64,000 bases of DNA from assembly GCA_003280965.1 (NCBI GenBank), contig QCDI01000003.1, positions 84,837-148,836 of the forward strand, given 5' to 3'. This document shows positions 32,700-59,345 of this stretch, piece by piece. A program made the translations under genes and the position numbers. The notes under the pieces were generated by a model. That model was not told the origin of the DNA and made no database searches. It saw only the letters and a program-made list of their open reading frames with translations. The DNA comes from Prochlorococcus sp. AG-355-B18. Its GTDB lineage: Bacteria > Cyanobacteriota > Cyanobacteriia > PCC-6307 > Cyanobiaceae. Position 1 is the first letter of the stretch, and each line of letters opens with the position of its first letter.

Positions 32700-32784
32700 T
32701 AGGTTTCACGTAGGTTTCACGTGGAATATTGGTAACCTATTTGCAACGCTTTTTGATGGCTAGGTTTCACGTAGGTTTCACGTG
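32700..32784 (+). repeat. Two pairs of 11-bp tandem repeats (TAGGTTTCACG), putative integrase arm-type sites
   Basis: Perfect copies at 32700, 32711, 32761, 32772; pairs 61 bp apart; function inferred. Confidence 0.85.
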
Positions 32785-32930
32785 ACGCTATAAGCACTTC
32801 TCTACAGAGAAATCAAGGAATGAATTTTTCTCTACACTTTTATTTCTCTGAAAGTACCGAAATATAATGTAAAAAAAACTTCTTTATTAGTAATATAGTT
32901 TCTAAAGACGGTACATAGCCAATTTTACCG

Positions 32931-35420
32931 ATGCTCGATAAAGAATGTATTAGGTCAATAAAGCGTTTTCAAGATCCTTTTATTCGTAGTTTCATTTTTG
33001 ATTCGAATTCTTGGTATGAGTTTGCAAGTAAAGTCAATCAACTTGGTAATGGAAGAGAACAAAATAAAACAAAAGGAGATATCTTTGAATTATTTACTTG
33101 TTTATATCTTGCATCAGATCCAATTTTTTCATCCAAACTGGAAAGTATTTGGCATCATTCAAATGTTCCATATCCCATAGTTGAAAAACTTGATTTACAA
33201 CTTCCTGAAATTGGAATTGATTTAATTACAAAATCAAAAGATGGAGATATTTGGGCGTTTCAATGTAAATATCATTCTGATATTAGTAAAAATGTTTCAT
33301 ACGAGGAGGTCTCCACTTTTTTCTCAATTACAAATAGACCTCAAACATTTAATAATATTACTCATAGGATAATTTGTTCTTCAACATACGAGGTTAGTAA
33401 AAAAATAAGAAATGCTGAAAAAAATAAACTAGGTTATTTAACTTTTTGTGAATTTAGTCAACTTGGTAAAGAAGAGTTCTATGGTTTTCATTCCCTTTTG
33501 AAAAATGAAAAGATTAGTCTTGAGAGTTATGAACCAAGAAATCATCAGATAAATGCTATTGAAAAATCAATAAGATATTTTTCTACTGAATCAAGGGGTA
33601 AATTAGTTCATCCTTGTGGTGCTGGCAAAAGTTTAACTGGGTACTGGATATTTCGACATTTAAGCGTAAATAACACATTGATTGTTGTTCCTAGTCTTCA
33701 ATTAGTCAGACAGACTCTAAAAGCATGGGCAAGAGAATTATTGTGTGATGGTGTAGAAATCGATTGGATAGCGATATGTAGCGACGACGATGTTAGAAAT
33801 GTAGATGATCCGGCGATGAATATTTCAGATATAGGAATTGAAGTTAATACAGATGTAGAGGTTATAAGTAAATTTTTAACAAAAAAAACTAATAATAAAA
33901 AAATCGTAATTACCACATATCAAAGTGGAAAAGCGTTAATCAATGCAGCACAATTCACTAATTTCAATTTTGAACTAGGAATTTTTGATGAAGCTCATAA
34001 AACTGCAGGAAATAAAAATAAGCTCTTTGCTCAACTTCTTTATGATGAAAATATTTTTATAAAGAAAAGATTATTTATGACAGCTACTGAGAGGGTATTT
34101 AGAGGTGATTCAGATGAAACTATATCTATGGATGATGAAGTTATTTATGGAAGAATAGTTGATGAATTTTCTTTTAAATCTGCTCTAGAGCAGAAACCAA
34201 AAATTCTTTCTGATTATCAAATATCAACGACAGCTACATTTAAAAATGAAATTAAAGAATTGATAGAAAATAATGAACTTCTGAAAGCAGGAAATAAACA
34301 ATGGACATTTGAGGCAGATGCATCAACTTTTGCAGCTTTAATTACATTAAGAAAAGCAGTTCAGGAATTAAAAGTAAAACATGTAATTTCATTTCATCGA
34401 AGTATTTCAAGAGCTAGAGAATTTCAACAATTAAATGATGCAGTCAATAATTTTGGTACTAAATTTGGGTATATTCATTCTTATCATATTAATGGAAAAA
34501 AAGGCACAGGAAAAAGGTCTGAAATAATTAATAGATTTATTTCTGAAGAACCAAGTTTAATTACTAATGCTCGATGTTTGACGGAAGGAGTTGATATTCC
34601 TGAAGTCGATGCAGTTCTTTTTGCTGATCCAAAGGATAGTACAGTTGATATTGTACAGGCGGCAGGAAGAGCAATGAGAGTAAGTGATAATAAGGAATTA
34701 GGTTATATTCTTTTACCTGTGATGCTTGATGAAGAAGAAAATAATTCAATCGAGGATAGTGCCTTTAAACAAATTATTAAGGTGGTTTCAGCTTTAGGTA
34801 TGAGCGATGAAAGGATTGTTGCAGAATTTCAAGAAATTGCTCAAGGTAATAATCCAACAGGGAGAAGAATTGTTGATATTGAGGAAGTTTTTAGTTCAAT
34901 AAATTTAGAAAGCTTGTATTCGAATATAAACTTTAGAATTTGGAACAGATTGAGTTTCGCATCGAAATTTATAAATTTAAATCAAGAGATATTAATTGCT
35001 GAAATAGGAAAATCTGGTGATAGATGGAAGCAAGCTAATTTTCCACTCAAAATATGGGAAAATTACTTTGGAGGAGATTTAAAACTTGAGAAATATATCC
35101 ACTTGTATGAAGTCAATAGAAACGGTTCTCTCAACAAAAAAGTCAGTACAAAGATAGTAAAGGTTAAAAGTCAAAACTATAGAGTTGAATTAGGAGCAGT
35201 TGCAGGAATTAATTATCCTGATTCAGGTAGACCTATAGGTATCTTTAAAAAAATTTCCCAAAGTGAATTTAGATATCATATATTTATGCCAGACGATCCC
35301 ATGCATCCAAATTTACTTGGTTATTTAAATATTAGGGGTAAAGGTTATGCGACATCTCTTAAAGGAGCTTTAGTTTTTTTAAATCAACTTGAATCACTTT
35401 GGCCAGATTGTCCTGTTTAG
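32931..35420 (+). CDS. Mrr-like nuclease + SF2 (DEAH) helicase fusion with unrecognised C-terminal domain; restriction subunit-like
   Basis: N-terminal GDIFE...GIDL...QCKY; helicase motifs PCGAGKS, DEAH, TAT, LTEGVDIP, QAAGRAMR; no MTase motifs. Confidence 0.88.
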   Translation: MLDKECIRSIKRFQDPFIRSFIFDSNSWYEFASKVNQLGNGREQNKTKGDIFELFTCLYLASDPIFSSKLESIWHHSNVPYPIVEKLDLQLPEIGIDLITKSKDGDIWAFQCKYHSDISKNVSYEEVSTFFSITNRPQTFNNITHRIICSSTYEVSKKIRNAEKNKLGYLTFCEFSQLGKEEFYGFHSLLKNEKISLESYEPRNHQINAIEKSIRYFSTESRGKLVHPCGAGKSLTGYWIFRHLSVNNTLIVVPSLQLVRQTLKAWARELLCDGVEIDWIAICSDDDVRNVDDPAMNISDIGIEVNTDVEVISKFLTKKTNNKKIVITTYQSGKALINAAQFTNFNFELGIFDEAHKTAGNKNKLFAQLLYDENIFIKKRLFMTATERVFRGDSDETISMDDEVIYGRIVDEFSFKSALEQKPKILSDYQISTTATFKNEIKELIENNELLKAGNKQWTFEADASTFAALITLRKAVQELKVKHVISFHRSISRAREFQQLNDAVNNFGTKFGYIHSYHINGKKGTGKRSEIINRFISEEPSLITNARCLTEGVDIPEVDAVLFADPKDSTVDIVQAAGRAMRVSDNKELGYILLPVMLDEEENNSIEDSAFKQIIKVVSALGMSDERIVAEFQEIAQGNNPTGRRIVDIEEVFSSINLESLYSNINFRIWNRLSFASKFINLNQEILIAEIGKSGDRWKQANFPLKIWENYFGGDLKLEKYIHLYEVNRNGSLNKKVSTKIVKVKSQNYRVELGAVAGINYPDSGRPIGIFKKISQSEFRYHIFMPDDPMHPNLLGYLNIRGKGYATSLKGALVFLNQLESLWPDCPV

Positions 35421-35421
35421 G

Positions 35422-36786
35422 TTATCTACAAATAAAAAGATATTCTGAATCAAACGATATTTCTTTATTGAGAGCAGTGCGGTTAAGTTTACTATGAGAA
35501 AATTTCCCCACGGAATCTATGTCGACTTTTGAAAAAAAATTTAAAGCAATCTCTCTGATTTGATCAATCGTCATAACTCTTGGATGTGCATTTTTCTCTG
35601 ATGCATATGGTGAGTAAGAGAGGACAAGAGGTAACTTTTTTTCAGATATTTTCGAAAATAGTAATTGGAATGCTTTTGGAGCTTGATTGCGAATACAAAA
35701 AGGTGATTGATGACGATTCTTTCTATATATCCCACGACTAAGCATGGTTTCCCCATGTGCTTTGTTTGATGAAATTTCTGGATCATCTCTCAAAGATAGA
35801 GTTTCAAGAACATGATAAAAACGACTGTAATGATCTCTTGTGTATGGAGGATCTGCGTAAATAATGCTTTCATTGCACTCTTTAGATGAAAGGTAATCTA
35901 AGTAATCAGATCTAATTGCTTCGTGATTAAAATTTGCTGAATAATTTAAGCAAAATTTTTCAAGTGAATATAAAAAAATCTTAGTTATTGATTTATTTCT
36001 ATCTTTTGATGTTTGATTGTATAAAGACTTTTTCACTTTACCTTCTTTATCACGAGGTCTTAAGGGTTGGGCAAAGTGTTTGCCGACAGTATTAACGACT
36101 TCACTTGCAGTTGCTAAAATAGCAGCAGTGAATAAATCTTTTTCTAATCCTATATAGTTTTCAGCCATATCTAATAAAGCATCAATTTCTGCAGCTTGTT
36201 TGAAAGAGAAATAAATACCACCAAAATGTCTTAATGTCATCGTAGATAAATAATTTTCTTTAGGAAATTTTTCAATTTGTTTCCAACAATTATTCATTGC
36301 TATTTGAAAATCATTTTTAATATCGTTTTTTGCGGTCATTAATGATCCGCTTTCAATCATCATTGCAAGTTGTTCTGTATCCCCATTTTTAGCCTGACTC
36401 ATCAAATTTTCCTCAATTTCAATTAATGGTTCAGCTACGATTAATGATTTATGCTTATGGATATTTTTAAGTTGATTTTCTAACTTATTTTTATTTTTTT
36501 TTATAAAAATTTTGTTATCACTTAGTAGTGCTGTGCACAATATGCGAGAGTATTCTTGGATATCAATAGCAGTTACTTTGCGCGTTTTTCCTAGCCAAGA
36601 GGAGACAGTACCTGATCCAGCAAACAAATCACATACAGGGGCATCTTTAGAGGTAATTTGATTTAAGTTAGATTCTATTTTTTCTAAAATTCTTAATTTA
36701 CTTCCAAGATAATGAATAGGTCGCCATGGCTCTTGATCCTGAATTAATTTTGTTTTCCCTTTATTAGATAAATGTTTATATGACAC
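35422..36786 (-). CDS. N6-adenine DNA methyltransferase, alpha-class (D12/FokI-like)
   Basis: YLGSK, DLFAGSG (motif I) precedes YADPPY (motif IV); YSRFYHVLETL. Confidence 0.88.
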   Translation of the reverse strand: MSYKHLSNKGKTKLIQDQEPWRPIHYLGSKLRILEKIESNLNQITSKDAPVCDLFAGSGTVSSWLGKTRKVTAIDIQEYSRILCTALLSDNKIFIKKNKNKLENQLKNIHKHKSLIVAEPLIEIEENLMSQAKNGDTEQLAMMIESGSLMTAKNDIKNDFQIAMNNCWKQIEKFPKENYLSTMTLRHFGGIYFSFKQAAEIDALLDMAENYIGLEKDLFTAAILATASEVVNTVGKHFAQPLRPRDKEGKVKKSLYNQTSKDRNKSITKIFLYSLEKFCLNYSANFNHEAIRSDYLDYLSSKECNESIIYADPPYTRDHYSRFYHVLETLSLRDDPEISSNKAHGETMLSRGIYRKNRHQSPFCIRNQAPKAFQLLFSKISEKKLPLVLSYSPYASEKNAHPRVMTIDQIREIALNFFSKVDIDSVGKFSHSKLNRTALNKEISFDSEYLFICR

Positions 36787-36830
36787 TATTTTTTACTTTC
36801 CCAAAGTTAATGTTGCCCAATTTTAATACC

Positions 36831-36854
36831 TAATTAATATTCTTATATTAATTA
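36831..36854. promoter_or_regulatory. 10-bp inverted repeat in the divergent promoter region between the two MTases
   Basis: TAATTAATAT-TCTT-ATATTAATTA; arms are A/T-only, so function is uncertain. Confidence 0.3.
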
Positions 36855-36903
36855 CTTTTTTAAATAAATTAAAAAAGATTTATAAACTAAAAATATCTTT
36901 CAA

Positions 36904-38037
36904 GTGCACGATCCCATACAACAATTAGGTTTAATAAATCATGAGAAATATTCTCTGAAAGAGAACGATAAATTATTTTTAGGGGAAGGTAGTCAATTAT
37001 CTGCTCTAATACATGGAGATAATGATGCAGTAATTGATATAGCTAGTGAATATTTGAAAAATCAAGTTAGGTGCATTTATATTGATCCACCTTATAACAA
37101 CCTTGAAGTTTATGAACATTATGAAGATCGCGATTCATATGCTGTGTGGATTAAAAAGTTGACTAATCATATTGCCCGACTTTATAAGTTATTACGTGAT
37201 GACGGCAGTCTTTGGATATCTATAGATGATCGACAAATGCACTATCTCAAAGTAGCTATGGATGAGATTTTTGGTAGAAATAATTTCATTTCAACTATAG
37301 TTTGGGAGCATAGAAAAACAAGAGAAAATAGAAAGGTTTTTTCAAATAATCATGAATATATTCTTGTATACGCAAAGGATGCTGAAATTTTTAAAAAGTG
37401 TATGAATAAACTTCCTTATAATGATGAGATAAAAAAAAGATTTAAAAATCCTGATAATGATTATCGCGGTCCATGGCAGTCAATATCTTTAAATGTACAG
37501 GCAGGACATGCTACAAAAAGTCAGTTTTATGATCTTATTGCACCAAATAGCAATATTCATAAACCTCCCGCTGGTAGATGTTGGGTTTATTCAAAACTCA
37601 AAATTCAAAAATTAATTAGTGATAATCGCATTTGGTTTGGGCAAGATGGTAATGGAGTTCCGAGATTAAAGAGATTCCTCAACGAAATAGATACATCCTT
37701 AACTCCGCATACTTTATGGAGAGCTGATGAAGTGGGAACTACTGAAAATGCAAAGAAAGAAATATTAAAATTGTTTCCAGAAGAGCCGGTATTCGATACA
37801 CCGAAACCTTTTCAATTGATTGATAAAATTCTCAAAATTGCTGCTAATCCTGGTGATCTAATCTTAGATAGTTTTTTAGGTTCTGGAACAACTTCCTCAG
37901 TTGCGATTCAAAATAGAATGAGATTTGTTGGAATTGAGAGAGGAAACCATATATATTCTCACTGTCATAAACGTCTTAAGCAAATTTTAAAAGAATATGA
38001 TGCGCAAGTAAAATTCTTCGAACTTGTAGAAGAATAA
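36904..38037 (+). CDS. Amino (N6A/N4C) DNA methyltransferase, beta-class (Type III Mod-like core)
   Basis: IYIDPPYN (motif IV) precedes FDTPKP and LDSFLGSGTT (motif I). Confidence 0.9.
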   Translation: MHDPIQQLGLINHEKYSLKENDKLFLGEGSQLSALIHGDNDAVIDIASEYLKNQVRCIYIDPPYNNLEVYEHYEDRDSYAVWIKKLTNHIARLYKLLRDDGSLWISIDDRQMHYLKVAMDEIFGRNNFISTIVWEHRKTRENRKVFSNNHEYILVYAKDAEIFKKCMNKLPYNDEIKKRFKNPDNDYRGPWQSISLNVQAGHATKSQFYDLIAPNSNIHKPPAGRCWVYSKLKIQKLISDNRIWFGQDGNGVPRLKRFLNEIDTSLTPHTLWRADEVGTTENAKKEILKLFPEEPVFDTPKPFQLIDKILKIAANPGDLILDSFLGSGTTSSVAIQNRMRFVGIERGNHIYSHCHKRLKQILKEYDAQVKFFELVEE

Positions 38038-38038
38038 A

Positions 38039-38590
38039 TTATTCCCAGCCATAAGGAAAGAACTTTCTACATCCACCCGAATCAACAAAGAATCCTTCTG
38101 TAGCATCTATAATAGTTTTCATTTCTTTTGATAATTTTTGTCTTCCAAATTCACTATCTTTAGTAAAAGGAATCGAATAATAATAACCTTGTGAAAGTGA
38201 TGGCATTAATGCTCTTAATTTGCCAGATTTCCTATCTTTTTTTGAAGTTGCTCTCCCTAATTGATTCCCCACAAAATTCATAAAAGGTCCTGTCCTTATC
38301 TCCTTTGTATTTTTTGTTCTTTCCTGATAGGTTTTTTCTTCGTTTAACAATTCAGGTGAATATGATCTTGCGGTGTAATACTGACCACCATATCCATTCC
38401 AGATACCTACATAGAAACCTAAAGAAGGTTGATTTTTATAATTTAGAGATCCTATACCACCACCGGAACCAGTATATTTCAAAGTTATAGTTACATCTGG
38501 TTCTACTTCACTTGTAAGTGTGCAAATTGAGTCTGCTTTAACTAAAGGAATAACACCTAATAAAAGTGGCAAAAGTAGTAAGAGTTTCAT
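38039..38590 (-). CDS. Hypothetical exported protein
   Basis: 183-aa ORF with signal peptide MKLLLLLPLLLGVIPLVKA; two Cys near the termini. Confidence 0.75.
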   Translation of the reverse strand: MKLLLLLPLLLGVIPLVKADSICTLTSEVEPDVTITLKYTGSGGGIGSLNYKNQPSLGFYVGIWNGYGGQYYTARSYSPELLNEEKTYQERTKNTKEIRTGPFMNFVGNQLGRATSKKDRKSGKLRALMPSLSQGYYYSIPFTKDSEFGRQKLSKEMKTIIDATEGFFVDSGGCRKFFPYGWE

Positions 38591-38949
38591 TACCTACGAC
38601 GACCTAAATCAATTAACTTAGTTGTTCTTTTGCAAATATCAACTTCTATCCATTCCATATTTGCAGTATGAGTTGGCATATCCTCTTTTGACGCAACTGT
38701 ATATTTACACTCATTGAAGATATCTGTTTGATAAACCCAATACCAAGGATATTTGTAATGAGTATTACGTTCAATCCTTTTTGTAAGCATTTCCCAATAG
38801 GTGTCATTAACTAATTTAATTGCTGCTCTTTCGCCTTCAGTACATTCACCTTGCGATTCTGGGCAGGTATATTTGTGCCTTTTATATTGTTCTGTATTAG
38901 CAGGAGTACTAAAACCAAATATCAAAAACAGAAGAAATAGTTTTTTCAA
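38590..38949 (-). CDS. Hypothetical exported protein
   Basis: 119-aa ORF, signal peptide MKKLFLLFLIFGFSTPA, four Cys; stop overlaps next start by 1 bp. Confidence 0.7.
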   Translation of the reverse strand: MKKLFLLFLIFGFSTPANTEQYKRHKYTCPESQGECTEGERAAIKLVNDTYWEMLTKRIERNTHYKYPWYWVYQTDIFNECKYTVASKEDMPTHTANMEWIEVDICKRTTKLIDLGRRR

Positions 38950-39011
38950 AATTATTTTTTATATTAATTTTAATTATCCTGTCAATATGACAAATATTAC
39001 TCCTCAAACTA

Positions 39012-39033
39012 TAGGTTTCACGTGGGTTTCACG
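39012..39033 (+). repeat. Pair of 11-bp tandem repeats T(A/G)GGTTTCACG near the right end of the guaA island
   Basis: TAGGTTTCACG TGGGTTTCACG, same motif and orientation as 32700-32782. Confidence 0.85.
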
Positions 39034-39102
39034 TAGAAAAATTTGTGTTATAATCAGGTCAAACCCATTGATATAACTGTCTTTTTTATTCACCTCTTTG
39101 GA

Positions 39103-39123
39103 GGGACTATTGAGTGGGAGTAA
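39103..39123 (+). repeat. attR-like direct repeat (duplicate of guaA 3' end)
   Basis: GGGACTATTGAGTGGGAGTAA encodes GTIEWE*, as at 32643-32663. Confidence 0.92.
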
Positions 39124-39195
39124 GTTATCAAAATTTCTAAAAACTAGAGGATTTTAATTTATACAAGAAATGTTTTTAAATTAGATTGAAACATA

Positions 39196-39909
39196 ATGAG
39201 CGAGATTATTAAACTAAGTCGATCTACTGTTGAGAAATATCTTAGTTGTCCAAGATGTTGTGTACTTGATAAAAAATATCAAATAAAACCGCCCTCATTA
39301 CCATTTACTTTAAATATAGCTGTCGATAATTTATGTAAAAATGAATTTGATCACTACAGAAGAATTCAGGAGCCACATCCATTATTTATTGAACATGGCA
39401 TTGATGCAGTTCCTTTTAAACACAAAAATTTAGAACGTTGGAGAAGTAATTTTCAAGGAATAAGATATAAGTCAATTGAACATAATTATGATTTTGGTGG
39501 AGCTGTGGATGATATTTGGCAGAAAAAAAATGGTGATCTTATCATTATTGATGTAAAAGCAACATCTAGAAATAATTTTGATTGGTCTGAGACTTTTAAT
39601 AAGTACGAATATGCAAAAGCTTATAAGAGACAATTAGAAATGTATCAGTGGTTATTTAAAAAGAACGGATTTAAAGTTGCCAAAGAAGCTTATCTCTTAT
39701 ACTTTAATGGAAAAAAAAATGAAGAGGTTTTTAATAATCAATTAAATTTTGATGTACATTTAATTAGATTAGATTGTTCTACATCATGGGTAGAAAATAA
39801 GATAATTGATACGGTCAAATTATTGCGTTCTGATATTTTTCCCAAACCGTCATTAAATTGCGAATACTGCAATTATTTAAAAAAACGTTGGAAATTATCA
39901 ATAACTTAA
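39196..39909 (+). CDS. PD-(D/E)XK nuclease family protein (Cas4/AddB-like)
   Basis: LSRS..CPRC, GAVDD...IIDVK, QLEMY, C-terminal CEYC. Confidence 0.85.
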   Translation: MSEIIKLSRSTVEKYLSCPRCCVLDKKYQIKPPSLPFTLNIAVDNLCKNEFDHYRRIQEPHPLFIEHGIDAVPFKHKNLERWRSNFQGIRYKSIEHNYDFGGAVDDIWQKKNGDLIIIDVKATSRNNFDWSETFNKYEYAKAYKRQLEMYQWLFKKNGFKVAKEAYLLYFNGKKNEEVFNNQLNFDVHLIRLDCSTSWVENKIIDTVKLLRSDIFPKPSLNCEYCNYLKKRWKLSIT

Positions 39910-39989
39910 TTATTATCGAGAATTATTGGCTATCTCTGGAAAAATAGTAAATTAAAGATAATCTTTACTTAGATAATTTATTTAGACTT

Positions 39990-40598
39990 TTGATAAATTC
40001 GAAAAATTCTGAGAGCAAGATAACTAATCATCTTCAGCAAGATGTAGTAAAGGTATCTGGTAAAACAATTTTTATTAATCCTTTTTTGTATTGGCGAAGG
40101 TTTGACGAGAATACAAATAGATGGCTTAGAGAACCTGGTCAAATGTCTGAGGATCAAATTAATCCAAATAGGAACCGTTTTTATCCAGAAATAGAGTGGA
40201 CTGATTTAAGCCATGAGCAAAAGCTTATAAAAGATGCAACCGTAGAGATGTTTCTAAAAACTCTTGAATTGATTAGTACATTTCATCCGTACCTTAGTGC
40301 TGGACAGCTATTAGAAGTTGAGAGAAAAATGGCCATCATAAAAAAAGTTCCTTTTGAAAAGTGGGTCACAAAATCTTTCGCTAAAAAAGCTAAATTATTA
40401 GAAAATGAAAAAAGAAAATATCAGAGAGAAAGGTTTTTTAGTAGCTGGAAGGAATGGTTTAGTCTTGAAAATACTCAGCAAGCTATTATGCCATTGATCG
40501 TCATTATATTTTTATCAACATTCATTGGTTGGTCCTTAGGCATATCTAAAAATAGTTGTAATCCTTATTTTGAACAAAATTTAGATCAGTCAAATTAA
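39990..40598 (+). CDS. Conserved hypothetical protein with C-terminal TM segment
   Basis: 202-aa ORF; INPFLYWRRFD, NRFYPE; hydrophobic C-terminus. Confidence 0.75.
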   Translation: MINSKNSESKITNHLQQDVVKVSGKTIFINPFLYWRRFDENTNRWLREPGQMSEDQINPNRNRFYPEIEWTDLSHEQKLIKDATVEMFLKTLELISTFHPYLSAGQLLEVERKMAIIKKVPFEKWVTKSFAKKAKLLENEKRKYQRERFFSSWKEWFSLENTQQAIMPLIVIIFLSTFIGWSLGISKNSCNPYFEQNLDQSN

Positions 40599-40698
40599 TT
40601 TTTCATATTTTTTTGGTACCGAACTTAATATTATTTTGAAAAAATAAATTTTTTATTTAACATTGGTATGAATGAAAAAATTTTAAAAATATAAGTAT

Positions 40699-40848: not shown

Positions 40849-40852
40849 ACTT

Positions 40853-42643: not shown

Positions 42644-42664
42644 AATTCTTTTAGGTTTAAAAGT

Positions 42665-45025: not shown

Positions 45026-46801
45026 CTAATAATGATTAGCAACTTTTCTGTGATGAACTGCTGTCTTGCATGATAAATCAGAAACATTACCATTTTCAAC
45101 AATCCCGTAAATTATCCAATGATCTGGAGTTTCCATTCTGGAACTAACTTTACAATCTAAAAAGGCGAGTGAATCTGAGAGAACTGGTCCTCCTTCAGCG
45201 ATGTTGCTAATTACATCTACATCTGCAAATCTGTCAGCTCCTGGGGCAAATCTTTTTAAAAAATGTCTGAACATTTTTTGATAGTTATCTTCTCTCAAGA
45301 TATTCACGACGAAACCTTTCCCAACTTGCATATATGATTCAATAGCTCTATCTTTTGCTACCGCAACTGTAATGCCTGGCGGAGAAAAGCTTGCTTGACT
45401 AACCCAACTTGCTACCATTGCACTTTGTCTAAATGTAGAACCTTCCCCTTGGCTCGCTGTAACTACATATAATCCTCCACTTAATCTACCTAACGCTTTA
45501 TCTAAATTTGAATCGAGGCTTTTCATAGAGGCAATATTCTTCTTTTTATTAATCAATTGACCCAAGTCAGTTCCAGCTTCTTCGAATTGTTGATAAACAA
45601 TTGGATCTGGAATATTTCTAACTCTTAGAGGCGAAAATGCCTCTTTCTGTCCTAGTTCTCTTAATTTATTTGCTAGTGAATCTATTGGTTCATCATTTCC
45701 ACCAAATGCATCGTATACAGCCGTAAATTGTTTTGGTTTTAATGCTGCAAACAATGTTCCAAGAGATTCTTTTAAATCGTTATCTGAATCCACTGGCCAT
45801 GTGGGAATAACCACTGCTTTTGATTCAGAAATTAAACTTGTTAATTCTTGAGTGTCAGAAGATCTTAAGTCAATTAATTGAACCTGTGCATCTGCTTTAC
45901 TTATTCCATGAGATATAGCTTGACTTAGTCGATCGCAATATCCATAGTCGCTTATATAACATACCGATACAAATTCATTACCTTTACTTTTATTGCTGCT
46001 CCATTCTAGATATTTTCCTTTCCAAAAATTGACCTGATTATGGAGCAAAGGCCCATGACCAACAGCTATTGTTTTTAATTCAGGTAGCTTATCTATTCTT
46101 TTAATTGCTTGCAGAACGCTTCTAGCGTTTGGACCCATAAGGCAATCGTAATAAAAACGGAAATCATCGTATATTTCTTTTTGATCAGTGTCAAAAAATT
46201 CTTCAGAACAATAATGTAGTCCAAATGCATCGCATGTATAGAGAACATTTGTGCTGTGATCATATGAAAATATGGTATCTGGCCAATGTAAATTTGGTGC
46301 ACTTATAAATTCAATATTATGTTCTAAACCACTATTAGGATTAGTTCCGAGATTTAAAAACTCTCCACTCTTAACCTCTAGATGCTTAAAAGGAATATGA
46401 ATTTGGTCTTCAATAAATTTAAGGGCTAATTTTGATCCAACTACTGTGATATTTTGGTTTAGTTCTAAAAGATTACCTATTAAACCAGAGTGATCAGGTT
46501 CTGTATGGCTTGTAATTAAATAATCAACTTCTTGAGGATTTACCTTTTTCAGTAATTCTTCAAACCATAATTCTCCGAACTTTGCGTGACTAGTATCAAT
46601 AATTGCTAGTTTTTCGCCTTTAATAATAAAACTATTGTAAGTAGTTCCATTTCTTAAACCAAATTCAATATCAAATCTACTGCGATCCCAATCCAAAGAT
46701 CTTATGGCACAAGAATCATCAGCAAAGTTTTGAGATTGAACCGTCAACTTGTTATTAGTTTGTGCCAATTTAGATTTACTTGTCTGGGCAGAGGCTATCA
46801 T
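45026..46801 (-). CDS. flv3: Flavodiiron protein (class C), canonical diiron site, Flv3-like
   Basis: SHTEPDHSG, HWPD, CDAFG, GHG; C-terminal flavin reductase domain. Confidence 0.88.
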   Translation of the reverse strand: MIASAQTSKSKLAQTNNKLTVQSQNFADDSCAIRSLDWDRSRFDIEFGLRNGTTYNSFIIKGEKLAIIDTSHAKFGELWFEELLKKVNPQEVDYLITSHTEPDHSGLIGNLLELNQNITVVGSKLALKFIEDQIHIPFKHLEVKSGEFLNLGTNPNSGLEHNIEFISAPNLHWPDTIFSYDHSTNVLYTCDAFGLHYCSEEFFDTDQKEIYDDFRFYYDCLMGPNARSVLQAIKRIDKLPELKTIAVGHGPLLHNQVNFWKGKYLEWSSNKSKGNEFVSVCYISDYGYCDRLSQAISHGISKADAQVQLIDLRSSDTQELTSLISESKAVVIPTWPVDSDNDLKESLGTLFAALKPKQFTAVYDAFGGNDEPIDSLANKLRELGQKEAFSPLRVRNIPDPIVYQQFEEAGTDLGQLINKKKNIASMKSLDSNLDKALGRLSGGLYVVTASQGEGSTFRQSAMVASWVSQASFSPPGITVAVAKDRAIESYMQVGKGFVVNILREDNYQKMFRHFLKRFAPGADRFADVDVISNIAEGGPVLSDSLAFLDCKVSSRMETPDHWIIYGIVENGNVSDLSCKTAVHHRKVANHY

Positions 46802-51512: not shown

Positions 51513-51634
51513 TTTATGTTTTAGTGATTAATAAATGTTTTTGAAAATAACTCAAAACAATATCTTTTATTTTAATGATTACTTGCCAAGTTACCACCCA
51601 AAAGTTGAATATACATAGAGTGATTATTAACTAA

Positions 51635-52093
51635 ATGACCAAAGAGAGAACTTTTATTGCAATTAAACCAGATGGAGTTCAAAGAGGATATGTTTCTGAG
51701 ATTATTGGCAGATTTGAAAAAAAAGGATTTAAATTGGTTGGATTAAAGCAATTAATTCCTTCAAAAGAACTTGCTCAAAATCATTATGGAGTACATAGAG
51801 AAAGACCCTTTTTTGGTGATTTAGTAGACTTTATTTCGAGTGGTCCTGTTGTAGCAATGGTTTGGGAAGGCGAAGGAGTTATTTTGAGTGCTAGAAAACT
51901 TATAGGTGCAACAAAACCTCTGGAAGCAGAGCCTGGAACAATTAGAGGTGATTTAGCTATTGATATTGGGAGGAATATTATTCATGGTTCTGATGGAGAA
52001 GCTACAGCAAAATTTGAAATTGATCTTTGGTTTAACGAAGAGGAATTATGTGAGTGGGAAACTTCTGATTCGAAATGGCGATCTGAAAATTAA
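51635..52093 (+). CDS. ndk: Nucleoside diphosphate kinase
   Basis: [22 protein letters not shown]. Confidence 0.98.
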
Positions 52094-52096
52094 AAT

Positions 52097-53206
52097 TTAA
52101 ATCGCAAATCTATCTAAACTAAATTTTTCTAAAAAGCTTTTTTCTATTTCTTTTAGATTTTTATTCTGAACTATTTTCAAAAGAAGATCACTTGTTATTG
52201 CAGAAAATAAAACTCCATTTCTGTAATGTCCTGTAGCTATGAAAAGATTTTCAATTTTTGATTTCCCAATTATTGGTTTTAGATCTGGTGTGCAAGGTCT
52301 AAATCCCCACCAATGTTCCATTTGTGGCCAATTAATAGCTTCTGGCAATAATGAGAGAATGCCTTCTTGCAGCTTTTTTATTCCATTAGGAGTATTACCC
52401 TGATTAAATTTTGAATCTTTTTCAACTGTCGCTCCAACTATAATAAGTCCATCATCACGGGGAACTAGATAAGTTTTTGGACCAAAAATAACTCTTTTCA
52501 AAAAATTTGTTGGACCTTGTATTGATAGCATTTGTCCCTTTACAGGAAAGACTGGAATTTTACTAAAAATTTTTTTACTCCAAGCACCGCTGCATATAAT
52601 TGCTTTTTCGCAGTTAATTTTTTTAATTTCCCCAGTTGCACATAAAACGGTTGCACCCGTAATTTTGTTTTTTTCGAATGTCAAATCCTCTACTTCTGAT
52701 CCCTCTTGAAATTCGACTCCATGCAAAGAGCATGCTCTCTCAAGAGCACGCATGAGTCTTCTTCGGTTATCTATTTGACCATCTTGTTCAAAAAGTAAAC
52801 CATGTTTCCAAATAGAATTTATTCCATTAATTTCTGTTTGAAGATCTTTGTGATTTAGATATTTTCCATATTCATACGTGGGAAACTCTTCAAGATCTTC
52901 TTTATTTTTAAAAGGAACTACTATACCACATTTTTTTAAACCGCATTTAATATTACTATCTTGTTCAATACTTTTTATCCACTTTGGAATTAAACTTTGA
53001 CTTGCTTGGCCAAATTTTAGTAATTCATCTTCGAGCCCTTCGGCATGAGTAGCTAACATACCTGCAGCAACAAATCCAGCTGATTCATTTCTGTTTTTGC
53101 TTAAAACTAAAACTTTGAAGTTATTTCTAGAAAATTCATAAGCAATAGATAAACCTAAAAGGCCACCGCCAATAATTAATATTGAATTTTTTGTTTCTTG
53201 TGTCAT
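52097..53206 (-). CDS. thiO: Glycine oxidase (thiamine biosynthesis)
   Basis: GGGLLG, AAGML, PVKGQ, GFRP, GHYRNG. Confidence 0.9.
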   Translation of the reverse strand: MTQETKNSILIIGGGLLGLSIAYEFSRNNFKVLVLSKNRNESAGFVAAGMLATHAEGLEDELLKFGQASQSLIPKWIKSIEQDSNIKCGLKKCGIVVPFKNKEDLEEFPTYEYGKYLNHKDLQTEINGINSIWKHGLLFEQDGQIDNRRRLMRALERACSLHGVEFQEGSEVEDLTFEKNKITGATVLCATGEIKKINCEKAIICSGAWSKKIFSKIPVFPVKGQMLSIQGPTNFLKRVIFGPKTYLVPRDDGLIIVGATVEKDSKFNQGNTPNGIKKLQEGILSLLPEAINWPQMEHWWGFRPCTPDLKPIIGKSKIENLFIATGHYRNGVLFSAITSDLLLKIVQNKNLKEIEKSFLEKFSLDRFAI

Positions 53207-53285
53207 TTAATAATTAATATTTTTATTTGTGTTTTGGTCCTCTTTTCCTTTATATCCAATAATATTAATAAAGAGACTTTTGATA

Positions 53286-54758
53286 ATGAAAAATTTGGAA
53301 TCTTGGGAAGCTGTGATTGGTTTGGAAACTCATGTACAGCTTAATACGAAAAGTAAAATATTCACATCTGCGTCAACAGCTTTTGGTGATGCTCCAAATA
53401 CGCATATAGATCCTGTCGTTTGTGGGTTACCAGGAACTCTTCCAGTTTTGAATGAGACTGTTCTTGAATATGCTGTAAAAACTTCTTTAGCATTAAATTT
53501 AAATGTTGCAGAACATTGTAAATTTGATAGAAAACAATATTTTTATCCTGATCTGCCTAAAAATTATCAAATTTCACAATTTGATGAGCCACTAGCTGAA
53601 AATGGTTGGTTAGAGGTTGAAATAATTGAAAAGGACAAAGAACCTTATATCAAAAAAATTGGTATAGAAAGGTTACATATGGAAGAAGACGCCGGAAAAT
53701 TAGTCCATTCAGGTAGTGACAGATTAGCTGGTTCTAAGTATTCTTTAGTTGATTACAATCGTGCTGGAATAGCTCTTTGTGAGATTGTAAGTAAACCAGA
53801 TATTAGAACAGGTAAAGAGGCATCTGAATATGCTTCAGAGATTAGAAGAACAGTTAGATATCTAGGAGTATCAGACGGAAATATGCAAGAGGGTTCATTG
53901 CGATGTGATGTCAATATTTCTGTTAGAAAAGGACCTAATGCTCCTTTTGGCACCAAAGTGGAAATAAAAAATATGAATTCATTCTCTGCAATTCAAAAGG
54001 CTTGTGATTATGAAATAGCCAGACAAATAGAAGTTTATGAAAAAGGAGGAAAAATTTTCCAAGAAACAAGGTTATGGGATGAAGCTAAGCAATTAACAAA
54101 AAGTATGAGAATGAAAGAAGGCAGCAGTGACTATAGATATTTTCCTGATCCTGACTTAGGACCAATTGAAATTACAAAAGCCCAAAAAGAAATATGGTTA
54201 AAAGAACTCCCAGAATTACCTTCAAAGAAAAGAAATAAATATGTAAGTGAATTTGGGTTATCTGCATATGATGCAAGGGTAATTTCTGATGAAATTAACA
54301 TGGCAAACTTTTTTGAAGAAACAGTAGCTAATGGTGCTGAGGCCAAACTAGCTTCAAATTGGGTAACAAGTGATATTGTGGGTTACTTAAAAGCAAATAA
54401 ACTTAGTTTCAGTGACTTAAAACTTAGTCCTAAAAATCTTTCTGAAATGATTAGCCTGATTTCAAATAACACTATCAGTGGAAAAATTGCAAAAGAAATT
54501 TTACCTGAACTAATTCAAAAAAATATTTCTCCGAAAAAATTAGTTAAAGAAAAAGGGTTAGCTATGATATCTGATTCTTCAAGTATTTTACCAATAATTG
54601 ATGAACTGATAACTGAACATCCAGATGAGGTTCAAGCATTTAGAAATGGTAAAACTAAATTACTTGGTTTTTTTGTTGGTCAACTTATGAAAAGAACAAA
54701 AGGTAAAGCTGACCCTAAACTTGCAAATAAACTTCTTGCAGAAAAATTGAAAAGCTAA
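53286..54758 (+). CDS. gatB: Asp/Glu-tRNA amidotransferase subunit B
   Basis: IGLETHVQL, FYPDLPKNYQISQ, DYRYFPDPDL; start at ATG 53286. Confidence 0.97.
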   Translation: MKNLESWEAVIGLETHVQLNTKSKIFTSASTAFGDAPNTHIDPVVCGLPGTLPVLNETVLEYAVKTSLALNLNVAEHCKFDRKQYFYPDLPKNYQISQFDEPLAENGWLEVEIIEKDKEPYIKKIGIERLHMEEDAGKLVHSGSDRLAGSKYSLVDYNRAGIALCEIVSKPDIRTGKEASEYASEIRRTVRYLGVSDGNMQEGSLRCDVNISVRKGPNAPFGTKVEIKNMNSFSAIQKACDYEIARQIEVYEKGGKIFQETRLWDEAKQLTKSMRMKEGSSDYRYFPDPDLGPIEITKAQKEIWLKELPELPSKKRNKYVSEFGLSAYDARVISDEINMANFFEETVANGAEAKLASNWVTSDIVGYLKANKLSFSDLKLSPKNLSEMISLISNNTISGKIAKEILPELIQKNISPKKLVKEKGLAMISDSSSILPIIDELITEHPDEVQAFRNGKTKLLGFFVGQLMKRTKGKADPKLANKLLAEKLKS

Positions 54759-54762
54759 AGCT

Positions 54763-55380
54763 TCAAAGAAGCTCTCTTATTGTCTGGATCCATTTATTTT
54801 GATCATCTGAATTGTCTAAAATAATGTCTGAAAATTTTCTTTTTTCTTCAAAACTTAATTGAAGATTTATGCAGTCATATGCCTCTTTTTCACAAATTTT
54901 ATCTCTTGTGATAAGTCTTTTTTTTTGTAGTTCTTTAGGACATTTAACTAACCATATTTCAGTGCAAATATCTTCAAATTTTGCTTCAAATAATAATGGA
55001 ATAACCAATACTATAGTTTGATTATTTTTGTATTTACTACATTCTTCTATCATTTTTTCTTTAATTAATGGGTGCAGTAGTTTTTCAATCCATTCTTTAC
55101 TTTCAGAATGTTTAAAAATAATGTTCCTTAAAAGTTTTCTGTTTATTGCCCTTTCTGAATTGTTCTTATGATCAATAATTTTATTTCCAAAATAATCTAA
55201 AATTTTCTTATATCCATATGTATTTGGTTTGATTAATTCTCTTGATAAATTATCTGCATCTAATATTGGAATGTTTTTATATTTTTTAATGTAATTAGTT
55301 ATGGTTGTCTTCCCACTAGCAATACCTCCTGTTAAACCAATTCTTCTTTGGTTGTTTTTTGATTTTTGAAGAATATCCAT
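54763..55380 (-). CDS. coaE: Dephospho-CoA kinase
   Basis: IGLTGGIASGKT, LLHP, PLLFE. Confidence 0.95.
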   Translation of the reverse strand: MDILQKSKNNQRRIGLTGGIASGKTTITNYIKKYKNIPILDADNLSRELIKPNTYGYKKILDYFGNKIIDHKNNSERAINRKLLRNIIFKHSESKEWIEKLLHPLIKEKMIEECSKYKNNQTIVLVIPLLFEAKFEDICTEIWLVKCPKELQKKRLITRDKICEKEAYDCINLQLSFEEKRKFSDIILDNSDDQNKWIQTIRELL

Positions 55381-55455
55381 ATAATTAATAATAATCTAAT
55401 TACCTGTTTCTTTAGTATTAAAGAGTAGTTAGTATGAATTAAAATACTAAAAATT

Positions 55456-56694
55456 TTGAGCCAGTTAGATTCCAATTGGTCGTTTGTTGATGACAGTAAG
55501 TTAACACCCAAGGGGTTCCTTTTTGGTGGGATATCTGCTGGATTAAAAGCTTCTAATAAAAAAGATTTAGCACTAATACTCGCTCCAGAAGGAAGTATTT
55601 TTAGTGGGATGTTTACCCAATCAATAGTTCGCGCTTCTTGTGTAGATATTTGTGAGGAAAGGATTAAAAGAACTTCAGGTTTTGTGCGAGCAATACTAAT
55701 TAATTCAGGACAAGCAAATGCATGTACAGGAAATCTTGGGATTCAACATTTTCAAATTGCTACAGGAAAGATTGCGGAACTTTTAGGTATAAAAGAAGAG
55801 GAAGTTTTAATGTGCTCAACTGGTGTAATTGGTGTCCCAATAAAAATCAATGATTTAGTAAAAAATTTATCGAATTTAGTTAATGATTTAAAGGGTAATA
55901 ATTTTCAAAATGCAGCAGAAGCAATTTTAACTACTGATTTGACTTTGAAAAAAGTTTTAATAGAGACGATTATTCAAGGTAGAAAAATAAAAATAGCAGG
56001 ATTTGCAAAAGGTTCAGGAATGATTTACCCCAATATGGCTACAATGCTTGCGTTTCTTACCTGTGATGCGGGTGTTCAAAAAGAAGAGTGGGACAAAATG
56101 ATTGCTATTGCGGTTAAAAAATCTTTTAATGCAATATCAGTTGATGGAGAGACAAGCACAAATGATTCTTTTGTTGGAATAAATGCAGGAGAGAAAATTG
56201 AAAAAAGGTTTTTCCCAATTATCCAAAAAGGGATTGATATTGTATGTCAAAAGTTGGCAAAAAGTATTGCAAGGGATGGAGAGGGAGCCAATTGTTTATT
56301 AGAAGTTTTGGTTTATGGAGCAAAAAATACTGATGATGCAATTATAATCGCGAAATCGATTTGCAATTCTGCCTTGGTAAAAACTGCGATACATGGTTGT
56401 GATCCGAATTGGGGACGAATTATTTCTGCTGCAGGTAATTCTGGAGTTAAATTCAATTTAAATAACGTTGATTTGTTTATAGGTAATGCTCAGATTTTGG
56501 AAAAAGGTAAGTTAAATAAATATGATTCACAAGAAGTCACAGACTATATTAATTCCAGAATGAAAGGTAGATATTTAGTTGATGATATTGTAAAAATTAT
56601 GATTAATCTAAATTCTGGCGAATCGAAAGGCACAGCTTGGGGATGCGATCTTTCTAAAAGGTATGTTGAAATAAATAGCGAGTATACGACTTAA
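55456..56694 (+). CDS. argJ: Ornithine acetyltransferase / N-acetylglutamate synthase
   Basis: NSGQANACTG, KGSGMIYPNMATML, DGETSTND, DPNWGRI, ends INSEYTT. Confidence 0.97.
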   Translation: MSQLDSNWSFVDDSKLTPKGFLFGGISAGLKASNKKDLALILAPEGSIFSGMFTQSIVRASCVDICEERIKRTSGFVRAILINSGQANACTGNLGIQHFQIATGKIAELLGIKEEEVLMCSTGVIGVPIKINDLVKNLSNLVNDLKGNNFQNAAEAILTTDLTLKKVLIETIIQGRKIKIAGFAKGSGMIYPNMATMLAFLTCDAGVQKEEWDKMIAIAVKKSFNAISVDGETSTNDSFVGINAGEKIEKRFFPIIQKGIDIVCQKLAKSIARDGEGANCLLEVLVYGAKNTDDAIIIAKSICNSALVKTAIHGCDPNWGRIISAAGNSGVKFNLNNVDLFIGNAQILEKGKLNKYDSQEVTDYINSRMKGRYLVDDIVKIMINLNSGESKGTAWGCDLSKRYVEINSEYTT

Positions 56695-56695
56695 G
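56671..56695 (+). repeat. attL-like direct repeat (3' end of argJ)
   Basis: ATAAATAGCGAGTATACGACTTAAG; 23/25 match at 59398-59422. Confidence 0.88.
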
Positions 56696-56847
56696 GCAAA
56701 TCCATTGTGCTGGAAGGGATTTGAAGGTTTTTGATTTTATATATCAGTTTTAAACCATATAGTTTCTACATAGTTTTTTAAAAGAATTTTTTAATTAATA
56801 ATAGAAATTTTAAAAAAGGCTACAATCAAAACAATAGAAGTATTGAA

Positions 56848-57540
56848 TTGAATAATCTCCCTTTTGATATTTTTAAGAAAATGGTTCCTAGCAGTAAGGA
56901 AGTCGTAGATAAGCATTTTTTACGTTTAAAAGAAGAATTAACATCTAATGAATTAAAAATAAATTTTTCACATTACGTTCAACTATTACACGATCAGATA
57001 TATACAGATTTTCTTAAAATTCAAAAAGATGGATTTAATAAAGCATTTTCTGATGATTTAGAGAGTGGAGAATTATCATTTGAAAAATTTGATAAATTTT
57101 TTCTAAGTCTCTCTCAGTCAAGAAGAGTGCGTTCAGGTGGTGTTTTTGAATTAATTATTGAAAATTTACTAAAGTTTTTGGAATATCCTATTGATACTCA
57201 AAAAAAGATTGATAACAAAAGAGTAGATTTTGTTCTTCCTTCAGTAGATTTTTATAAGAAAAATCCTCTTAATACCGTTTTATTATCTGCCAAAAGAACA
57301 ACCCGTGAACGTTGGAAGCAAGTTGTTCCTGAAGTCAGTCAGTCAAATCAATTCTATTTAGCAACAATAGATAAGCAAATTACAAGTGATCAGTTAAAAG
57401 AAATGGAAAAACATAGGGTATTTGTTATTAATACACTTCAAAATATTGATTCAATTGATCATTATAAAAATGCTGCAAATATGGTTTCTTTTGAGCATTT
57501 TTTAGATTTTACTTTGGATCATCAAAAGAGAACTTGGTAG
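56848..57540 (+). CDS. Type II restriction endonuclease, EcoRII C-terminal/PspGI/SsoII-like catalytic domain
   Basis: SRRVRSGGVFE, RVDFVLPS, SAKRTTRERWKQV resemble the CCGG-family catalytic motifs; adjacent to a C5 MTase. Confidence 0.82.
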   Translation: MNNLPFDIFKKMVPSSKEVVDKHFLRLKEELTSNELKINFSHYVQLLHDQIYTDFLKIQKDGFNKAFSDDLESGELSFEKFDKFFLSLSQSRRVRSGGVFELIIENLLKFLEYPIDTQKKIDNKRVDFVLPSVDFYKKNPLNTVLLSAKRTTRERWKQVVPEVSQSNQFYLATIDKQITSDQLKEMEKHRVFVINTLQNIDSIDHYKNAANMVSFEHFLDFTLDHQKRTW

Positions 57541-57643
57541 AATTTACCTTTATTTGAATTTAAAAATTTGCATTATGTAATTCAATAAAGACAAAAAGGG
57601 AAAAACTGATATCGTTTAAATATATTTAAAAATAGTGCCCTAG

Positions 57644-58852
57644 ATGGATATATTATTACGGGATTTAAATCCAGAAGATATTGAGTGGATAAAGAAAAAA
57701 ACACAGAATGCTACTTCACAAAATAAATTTATAAAGTCATTAATATCTGAAGCAAGAATTAAAGAAAAACTTCAATTAGTAAGAAACTCTGAGAAAAAAA
57801 ATTCATACCAAGATTCAAATACTCCTTTTAGTTTTATTGACTTATTTGCTGGAATTGGTGGATTTAGAAGCGCTCTAACTTTTCTTGGTGGTAAATGTGT
57901 TTTTACAAACGAGTGGAATAAATATGCAATAACTACTTATAAAAATTGGTATGGAGATGAAGAATCTACCAATGATCATGATATTAGAAACTTTAATCAT
58001 TCATTAATTCCTAATCATGATGTTTTATGTGCCGGATTTCCTTGCCAACCTTTTTCTTTAGCAGGTGTGTCTAAGAAAAATTCTCTTGGTAGAAAACATG
58101 GTTTTGAAGACGTTGATCAGGGAAATTTGTTTGATTGCATTATGAGTATTGTTGATGTAAAAAGACCACCAATTCTTTTTTTAGAGAATGTCAAAAATTT
58201 AAAATCACATGATAAAGGAAATACATGGAAGCATATACATAACGAAATCTCTTCTAGGGGTTATGAGATTTTTTCGAAAGTTATTGATGCTAGTAATTGG
58301 GTTCCTCAGCATAGAGAAAGGATTTTTATAGTTTGTTTTGATAAGTCTATTTTTTGCAAAGATAGGAAAGTTAATTTTCAGTTTCCAGAATTTCCTACAA
58401 CAAGAGAATATTCTTTATCAAGTTTTCTTGAAAAAAATCCTGACAAAAAATATATGCTTTCAGATAAGTTATGGAATTATCTTCAGAATTATGCTGAAAA
58501 ACATAGAAGAAAAGGAAATGGTTTTGGATATGGATTGGTAGGTAATGATGGCAAAACTAGAACCATGAGTGCAAGATATTACAAAGATGGTGCTGAAATA
58601 TTAATTGAACAAGATGGTTGGAGGAATCCAAGGAGATTAACTCCAAATGAAGCAAAATATTTAATGGGTTTTCATGATAAATATGCAAAATGTTTTGGTC
58701 ATATGAATGGATTCCCACAAGTTGTTTCAGATACACAATCTTATAAGCAATTCGGAAATTCAGTAGTTCCAATTGTCGTTGAAAAAATTATGATTCAGAT
58801 AATTGCAGAAATTAATTCTTATCGACAAGATTTAAACTTTAAGGCTGCTTAA
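57644..58852 (+). CDS. dcm: DNA (cytosine-5)-methyltransferase, Dcm/M.EcoRII/M.SsoII-like
   Basis: DLFAGIGG, GFPCQPFS, ENV, QHRER, KGNGFGYGLV, SARYYKDG, KQFGNSV. Confidence 0.92.
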   Translation: MDILLRDLNPEDIEWIKKKTQNATSQNKFIKSLISEARIKEKLQLVRNSEKKNSYQDSNTPFSFIDLFAGIGGFRSALTFLGGKCVFTNEWNKYAITTYKNWYGDEESTNDHDIRNFNHSLIPNHDVLCAGFPCQPFSLAGVSKKNSLGRKHGFEDVDQGNLFDCIMSIVDVKRPPILFLENVKNLKSHDKGNTWKHIHNEISSRGYEIFSKVIDASNWVPQHRERIFIVCFDKSIFCKDRKVNFQFPEFPTTREYSLSSFLEKNPDKKYMLSDKLWNYLQNYAEKHRRKGNGFGYGLVGNDGKTRTMSARYYKDGAEILIEQDGWRNPRRLTPNEAKYLMGFHDKYAKCFGHMNGFPQVVSDTQSYKQFGNSVVPIVVEKIMIQIIAEINSYRQDLNFKAA

Positions 58853-58858
58853 AGACTT

Positions 58859-59266
58859 ATGGATGTTCATAATCCAAAAGTTAGAAGTTTTAATATGTCT
58901 CAAATTAAATCGAAGGGAACGAAACCTGAATTAATAGTGCGTAAATTATGTTTTTCAAAAGGTCTAAGATATCGATTAAACAAAAAGATTTTTAATATCT
59001 CAGCAGATTTAATTTTTCCTAAATATAAATCTGTTATTTTTGTTCACGGTTGTTTTTGGCACAGTCATGATTGTAAATATGGGCGCGTGAAACCTAAATC
59101 AAATGCAGAATTTTGGAATAAAAAAAGAGGAGATACTTGCATTAGAGATCAACGAAATCAAAACAAATTGATAGAAAATGATTGGAAATACTTGATTATT
59201 TGGGAATGTGAACTCAAAAATTTAGAAAATGTTTCTTTTAAAGTTAATAAATTCTTTGATTTATAA
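58859..59266 (+). CDS. vsr: Very short patch repair endonuclease
   Basis: MDVH...RSFNMSQI...TKPE, FVHGCFWH, IWEC. Confidence 0.93.
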   Translation: MDVHNPKVRSFNMSQIKSKGTKPELIVRKLCFSKGLRYRLNKKIFNISADLIFPKYKSVIFVHGCFWHSHDCKYGRVKPKSNAEFWNKKRGDTCIRDQRNQNKLIENDWKYLIIWECELKNLENVSFKVNKFFDL

Positions 59267-59345
59267 ACCACTAATAAACCGGTAGTGTAGTTATATCAAT
59301 CGTTTTGAGAGATAAAAATTTAAATAAACCACCAATAAACCACTA
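59263..59345 (+). repeat. Two pairs of 11-bp tandem repeats (ATAAACCACTA consensus), putative integrase arm-type sites
   Basis: ATAAACCACTA 59263, ATAAACCGGTA 59274, ATAAACCACCA 59324, ATAAACCACTA 59335; pairs 61 bp apart. Confidence 0.8.

Follow-up and report, generated by a model that had tools for sequence, protein, structure and literature searches.

The window analysed here, a stretch of 64,000 nucleotides from contig QCDI01000003.1 of Prochlorococcus sp. AG-355-B18, holds two genomic islands, one at the end of guaA and one at the end of argJ. The guaA island is the stretch between two identical 18-bp cores (32646-32663 and 39106-39123), and the argJ island lies between two 24-bp cores (56671-56694 and 59398-59421) that differ at two positions. 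Near the cores stand tandem pairs of 11-bp units, whose coordinates, unit length and 61-bp pair offset at both islands, as given in an earlier note on this DNA, were all verified on the sequence. These repeats are very probably arm-type sites of tyrosine integrases. The chief point beyond that note is that nearly all such islands lack an integrase. Comparison with relatives makes it probable that they are integrase-less cargo cassettes, set between duplicated gene ends and moved by rare helpers that read the same 11-bp unit.

Organization of the two islands

The guaA island comprises the following features.

32646-32663, + strand: attL core, last codons and stop codon of guaA; identical to 39106-39123, one copy in empty relatives
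32700-32721, + strand: left arm pair 1, TAGGTTTCACG twice, likely arm-type integrase sites (sequence match, position in relatives)
32761-32782, + strand: left arm pair 2, 61 bp past pair 1 (sequence match, relatives)
32799-32836, + strand: inverted-repeat box ahead of the first cargo gene; in integrase-bearing elements, found before the integrase and other backbone genes
32931-35420, + strand: cargo, Mrr-like nuclease with ResIII/helicase, 829 aa (Pfam, PADLOC)
35422-36786, - strand: cargo, D12-class adenine methyltransferase, 454 aa (Pfam, PADLOC)
36904-38037, + strand: cargo, N6/N4 DNA methyltransferase, 377 aa (Pfam, PADLOC)
38039-38949, - strand: two small unannotated genes, 183 and 119 aa (blastn module match)
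39012-39033, + strand: right arm pair, unit and direction as in the left pairs (sequence match, relatives)
39066-39081, - strand: arm motif shared by guaA and argJ islands, candidate site of a host DNA-bending factor (score 17.4, with a matrix whose training set excluded this genome)
39106-39123, + strand: attR core, identical to the attL core

The unit TAGGTTTCACG occurs exactly at 32700, 32711, 32761, 32772 and 39012, with a further copy at 39023 that carries one mismatch. The position of pair 1, +54 to +57, recurs in relatives and ahead of three integrases (L214, L217 and G261; such handles are our own). A sixth exact copy at 59086, on the minus strand and unpaired inside vsr, is likely due to chance. 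The restriction cargo of this island was recovered at about 99% identity from four ocean metagenomes and from none of the other fetched loci, so it seems to have been swapped into a shared frame. The 183- and 119-aa genes matched nothing in Pfam or PADLOC; the module that they form is common to at least five other guaA inserts at 78-87% identity (blastn).

The argJ island comprises the following features.

56671-56694, + strand: attL core, end of argJ (core duplication)
56740-56761, + strand: left arm pair, degenerate, placed as the intact pairs of relatives G113 and G171
56848-57540, + strand: cargo, EcoRII-C-like restriction endonuclease, 230 aa (Pfam, PADLOC)
57644-58852, + strand: cargo, C5 cytosine methyltransferase, 402 aa (Pfam, PADLOC)
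58859-59266, + strand: cargo, Vsr endonuclease, 135 aa, whose stop codon overlaps the first arm repeat (Pfam, PADLOC)
59263-59284, + strand: right arm, inner pair (repeat match)
59286-59301, + strand: shared motif between the two right pairs, candidate bending-factor site (score 14.1)
59324-59345, + strand: right arm, outer pair, 61 bp past the inner pair (repeat match)
59363-59378, - strand: shared motif between right arm and core (score 21.1, the highest in the genome)
59398-59421, + strand: attR core (core duplication)

The right arm consists of ATAAACCACTA-like units at 59263, 59274, 59324 and 59335, with three mismatches in total. The degenerate left pair (56740/56751) that had been proposed lies where a pair is expected, at +69/+80 from the core start, and relatives retain an intact pair at that place. 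The resemblance of the two islands in the distance from repeats to core, given as 54 and 53 bp, is numerically correct; because these distances were taken from opposite ends of the core, the match depends on the reference point and is weaker than it appears, the distance from the inner core end being 36 bp at guaA and 52 bp at argJ.

The cargo of both islands consists of restriction-modification genes and the two small unknowns (Pfam, PADLOC). No recombinase was found by Pfam or the genome recombinase listing in either island or beside either site, and Pfam showed no module of replication and small serine recombinase genes in either. The genome (1.58 Mb, low GC, 24 contigs, 99.35% complete) encodes four tyrosine recombinases, all away from the islands and with neither arm unit upstream. 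Profiles of guaA- and argJ-type integrases gave no match in it at 1e-9 and, at 0.01, weak C-terminal matches only. With no helper in the genome, both islands appear to be presently parked.

The repeat geometry is rare in this genome. A scan for 2x2 tandems (unit 10-12 bp, offset 30-120 bp, up to four mismatches, low-complexity units filtered out) returned three matches, namely the guaA cluster, the argJ cluster and an unrelated repeat of unit 12 and offset 54 on contig C7. Block-shuffled genomes gave no 11/61 match in 20 shuffles and no match at any offset in two.

Occupancy of both sites in relatives

Occupancy was measured in 123 genomes of at least 85% completeness, wherever both flanks lay on one contig and strand. 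At argJ, 44 of 109 measurable genomes were empty and 65 filled (61 with an insert of at least 400 bp). At guaA 99 were measurable; with one rearranged genome set aside, 27 of the remaining 98 were empty and 71 filled (60 with at least 400 bp). The core is duplicated at the island ends and single in empty hosts, and the target gene stays intact. The 135 inserts fetched (71 from guaA and 64 from argJ, one 44-bp argJ insert being left out and two shortened) were searched by tblastn with 35 integrases. Three contained an integrase, in each case of full length, and the other 132 held no integrase fragment. Metagenomes gave a similar figure: among 77 left-arm matches, three were followed by an integrase, 59 had none in at least 600 bp and 15 were too short, leaving three of 62 informative arms with an integrase.

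The cassettes are small (median 1.6-1.8 kb) and frequently stacked in relatives, up to about five units, the islands of the window being single units. In those at guaA, two pairs stand on the left, at about +55 and +116, and one on the right. The main argJ type is the mirror image, its two pairs at about -135 and -72 being on the right and its single pair on the left. The offset between pairs was 60-62 bp in 32 of 38 guaA and 22 of 23 argJ cassettes in which all four copies could be located (out of 113 and 92 cassettes, respectively).

The 11-bp unit itself varies, with 10 guaA and 7 argJ flavours typed, a lower bound. Left and right arms nevertheless tend to carry the same flavour. Among typed cassettes, 44 of 54 at guaA have matching arms (shuffle mean 5.9, maximum 15), as do 50 of 58 at argJ (shuffle mean 10.3, maximum 20), or 94 of 112 overall, and in the guaA island of the window the match is exact. 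Given at least 10 guaA and 7 argJ variants in relatives, the AAACC that the earlier note saw in the argJ unit and in the reverse complement of the guaA unit is probably incidental. Automatic splitting of the inserts produced 239 segments, a few of them over-split; the 203 segments of at least 450 bp fell into 148 cargo families, 126 with a single member. Cargo is common to different flavours, and to both sites, at about 90% identity.

Among argJ cargo, the family encountered most often consists of proteins of about 410 aa that start with a signal-peptide-like segment, vary at the N-terminus and are conserved at the C-terminus (L187:4173-5414 and more than 25 argJ cassettes, sometimes several tandem cassettes).

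Integrase-bearing master elements

Integrase-bearing elements, here called masters, were found at both sites. Five guaA masters occur among 285 genomes (G030, G023, G261, G142 and G009), with integrases of 454-491 aa, and in four of the five the integrase stands directly behind the left arm. Further guaA masters come from metagenomes (L214, L217 and L239) and from two records titled Synechococcus/Cyanobium. The guaA unit of the window is carried by L214 and L217, and a neighbouring unit by L239. In L214 the resolvase gene, right pair, core, two left pairs and integrase follow in this order and constitute an attP-type junction. At argJ, the 527-aa integrase of master G049 lies at the far end and is directed inward, with two pairs at offset 61 ahead of it, an arrangement that bears out the mirror-image layout proposed for the two islands. 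Two other argJ masters, G223 and G228, have a second integrase type at the near end, and their flavour is also common in integrase-less cassettes. That integrase-bearing elements at guaA and argJ reproduce the layout seen in the window supports the proposal that the repeats are tyrosine integrase arm sites. Pattern scans and integrase scans of viral contigs gave no match, in a set that may lack records close to this genome.

Several masters additionally encode a small serine recombinase, a Rep-like protein and a 320-aa protein. The Rep-like protein has an Atlas look-alike of rolling-circle Rep at 0.94, the family being on 26% of that cluster; PHROGs returned nothing for it or for the 320-aa protein. 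The latter belongs to no known family, is conserved in guaA masters (L074:3575-4525, L118:4429-5412) and has Atlas look-alikes in unnamed viral clusters; it is a candidate regulator or directionality factor. These backbone genes are absent from the integrase-less cassettes except for a Rep fragment in G119, whose left end and cargo are also those of master G023 and which is clearly a deletion derivative.

The inverted-repeat box at 32799 was considered as a resolvase site for cutting out the backbone, and this was rejected, as several backbone genes are preceded by a copy of the box, in one direction or the other. Of 113 guaA cassettes, 70 retain it at the left end, and eight have it reversed at the right end. 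Such a distribution fits an operator, and the box is likely the operator or promoter of the element.

The region with catalytic residues R276, K313, R384 and H385 is conserved in the G261 integrase, as is Y416. Its structural model (mean pLDDT 79, pTM 0.50) shows an N-terminal β-sheet and helix ahead of the usual domains, and its fold matches are Tn1549 integrase, lambda integrase and XerH. This N-terminal domain is predicted to bind the arm sites.

Partial alignments between guaA and argJ integrases show about 20-30% identity. In a quick tree, limited to sequences found in this analysis, integrases group by target site (support 100 for guaA, 99 for a site at a flavodiiron gene and 87 for argJ), and the guaA and argJ groups are not sisters. 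The suggestion that two related, differently targeted integrases built the islands thus holds loosely as to relatedness. The further idea that the geometry is the signature of one family does not stand: such identities are too low for a narrow signature, each site is used by many arm flavours, and argJ is used by two integrase types. Rather, the 11/61 geometry marks a broad class of picocyanobacterial att arms.

The flavodiiron site is a third target, empty in the window (45026-45060, minus strand, 3' end of a 591-aa flavodiiron gene); in seven relatives an element with a 489-507-aa tyrosine integrase lies right at this gene end. Integrase groups of other sites were also noted (L121:8449-9966, L123:8659-10233, L188-L190 and L191-L196), several with tandem arm pairs and the shared motif upstream.

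Shared arm motif and the 61-bp spacing

A 16-bp motif is common to guaA and argJ arms, where it occupies the spacer separating the two pairs as well as the stretch from arm to core; the slot between the pairs, as at 59286-59301, is its commonest position in argJ right arms. In a held-out set of 22 integrases from other sites, 14 had the motif upstream, compared with 9 of 400 random windows containing it. Presumably the motif resembles an IHF site. The 61-bp offset is made up of a 22-bp pair and a 39-bp spacer, or about six helical turns. A host bending protein may bind the motif between the pairs and thereby fix the spacing, and a bend between two integrase-bound pairs would account for one spacing across distant integrases. 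Each integrase would bind its own arm flavour; the integrases of L214 and L217, for example, would bind GGTTTCACGT pairs and not all flavours alike.

Such an arrangement recalls lambda-type attP, which combines arm-type sites with a host bending factor (PMC4111918), and the paired direct 10-bp arm sites of Cluster J mycobacteriophages (PMC3706429). Here too the core is flanked by direct-repeat pairs, the integrase has three domains and the arms contain candidate host-factor sites. In contrast to the lambda-type system, the spacing is constant at 61 despite free variation of the arm unit at a single target, and the genome has a single HU/IHF-family gene (PF00216). Three pairs around a core are also a feature of HP1 and L5 attP.

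Proposed mobility of the cassettes

The proposed course of events is as follows. Cassettes would have begun as masters, lost the backbone and then exchanged cargo. A visiting master of matching flavour would excise a cassette, either alone or as a master-cassette tandem, and carry it to the intact gene end of a new host. On its own excision the master would leave the cassette behind, and stacks would be built in this way.

Two comparisons bear on whether the cassettes are still recognized. Across 20 cargo-sharing pairs, the arms differ at 131 of 1266 positions and the spacers at 721 of 4597, one striking pair showing 0 of 66 against 51 of 229. In four of 35 close pairs, cargo is 91-97% and both arms 81-100% alike, and the host flanks only 71-81%. 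The one such pair that was aligned, G010/G124, shows a step up in identity at the core, a pattern more in keeping with site-specific transfer of a unit that already lacked an integrase than with recombination through the flanks.

Several observations weigh against movement by helpers. The 20 pairs were hand-picked and are not independent, and several show no arm advantage (14/65 against 59/227; 15/66 against 35/226). The remaining 31 of the 35 close pairs have close hosts or one differing arm, which fits descent or ordinary recombination. No att-to-att circle joint occurs among the 15 joints listed (27 further ones exist) from four metagenome runs, a search of contigs only. No two cassettes proved to be truly reversed in order from one genome to another, the only cases being within-genome artefacts. 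The attP-type junction of L214 could belong to a head-to-tail tandem instead of a free circle. No argJ master with the argJ unit of the window was found in relatives. Finally, scars with the structure core-pair-core and a length of about 130-160 bp are frequent (L075, L299, L306, L314 and others), of the form that deletion between left and right arm pairs would be expected to leave, and together with the decayed left arm of the argJ island they indicate that decay clearly happens. At the guaA island, read mapping showed two kinds of joint: one of the scar type, linking 32666 with 39014, in four of four metagenome runs, and one of an empty site, linking 32664 with 39139, in X1; the summed read depths there are not copy numbers.

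Much of this would also be expected if the repeats were true arm sites of dead remnants that lost their backbone, spread by descent and homologous recombination and were kept for their cargo. G119, with its Rep fragment and its resemblance to G023, the frequent scars and degenerate arms, the lack of circle joints and order reversals in the sets above, and the absence of a helper from the genome of the window all fit such an origin. The near-complete absence of remnants themselves (132 of 135 inserts without any integrase fragment, and one backbone fragment overall), the better preservation of arms than of spacers in pairs sharing cargo, and the cross-lineage cassettes with host DNA divergent right up to the core argue in the other direction. 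We therefore regard dead remnants as the leading alternative, albeit an unlikely one.

A very improbable explanation is an integron-like one, in which a resident host recombinase shuffles the cassettes and the masters are incidental. The cassettes are indeed small and stacked and draw on a cargo pool common to both sites, and a 389-aa tyrosine recombinase, perhaps the chromosome-dimer resolvase, is present in most of the 123 genomes searched (L002:829-1998). Yet no arm motif match lies upstream of its gene, several of the many flavours stand directly ahead of the integrase of their own element, and one conserved protein would be unlikely to read 17 different units. Nor do the islands match an integron cassette array, their boundaries being duplicated gene ends and arm pairs with no recombinase alongside, although no search with attC models was made.

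We give as little credence to the repeats being regulatory operators or replication iterons of the element: a Rep-like gene is indeed present in masters, and the left pairs immediately precede the integrase or the first cargo gene, but the pairs occur at both ends at fixed core distances, flip to the other end along with the integrase at argJ and are united around the core in L214, and a separate box already recurs before backbone genes. Tn7-type ends were considered and rejected in view of the 18-24-bp core duplication, in place of a short target duplication, and of the lack of a transposase.

Helper-driven movement of cassettes thus remains the preferred explanation, and it may be extended, tentatively, to a fleet of att-only cassettes at protein-gene ends with orthogonal 11-bp codes, moved by helpers, whose 61-bp geometry is set by a host bender. 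As parts of this same tentative extension, the cassettes would be a tyrosine-integrase counterpart of miniature inverted-repeat transposable elements, under selection without an integrase, and the bender might be the single HU acting as a sequence-specific IHF across unrelated integrase families.

Relation to known elements

Arm sites, cis-mobilizable elements (CIMEs) and guaA targeting are already known. CIMEs of the Streptococcus ICESt1/ICESt3 type keep attL and attR, have lost the integration genes and accrete in tandem at a gene 3' end; they derive from integrative conjugative or mobilizable elements and, joined in tandem to an active element, can be transferred with it (PMC5704250). The present cassettes likewise keep attL and attR without integration and transfer genes, and show tandem accretion in relatives. 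They differ in that the feature of a conjugative ancestor was not observed: no conjugation gene was present in the subset of master genes scanned (integrase, serine resolvase, rolling-circle-Rep look-alike and unknowns). They also differ in the excess of integrase-less units over masters (about 40:1 across inserts), the many orthogonal flavours per site and the cargo common to two sites. Other islands at the guaA 3' end with a tyrosine integrase, namely GIsul2, ATE-1 and an IncP island (table in PMC5704250), are autonomous for integration, unlike these cassettes.

Tycheposons of Prochlorococcus occupy seven tRNA/tmRNA genes and have an end integrase, replication genes and a small serine recombinase; they are rare, transient elements that leave material behind, several in a row (bioRxiv 10.1101/2020.12.28.424599). 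The masters described here belong to the same host group and resemble them in their tyrosine integrase, replication and serine recombinase genes. In contrast, the present units lie at the ends of the protein genes guaA and argJ, mostly without an integrase and with sharp att boundaries. The main text of that preprint has no match for GMP, argJ or protein-coding. The parts covered of the VEIME paper (PMC9618062), PMC5812530 and PMC12884075 contain nothing on guaA or argJ sites. No report of argJ or the flavodiiron gene as an integration target in Prochlorococcus, and no description of guaA/argJ cassettes there, was found in the literature outside subscription papers and preprint supplements.

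Inserts of this kind occupy two core-gene ends in about 60-70% of the genomes measured, with defence and secreted proteins as cargo, and point to a route by which the most abundant marine cyanobacterium gains genes and which would escape surveys based on integrases or tRNA genes. The natural pairings of arm unit and integrase offer a direct test of how specific arm binding is and could be a source of orthogonal integration tools for picocyanobacteria, while the shared spacer motif makes the question of a host cofactor testable.

Further observations

A tmRNA gene, a known tycheposon target, lies in the window at 61660-61969 (C3:146496-146805), 2.3 kb past the argJ island. In G044 (C1, about 36300-63200; L067, L153) the core block of about 17 kb that separates the two islands is inverted, and both breakpoints fall inside the islands; G116, too, appears rearranged. 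Elsewhere in the window, a coding tandem repeat with a 30-bp unit in about four copies occupies 8307-8426.

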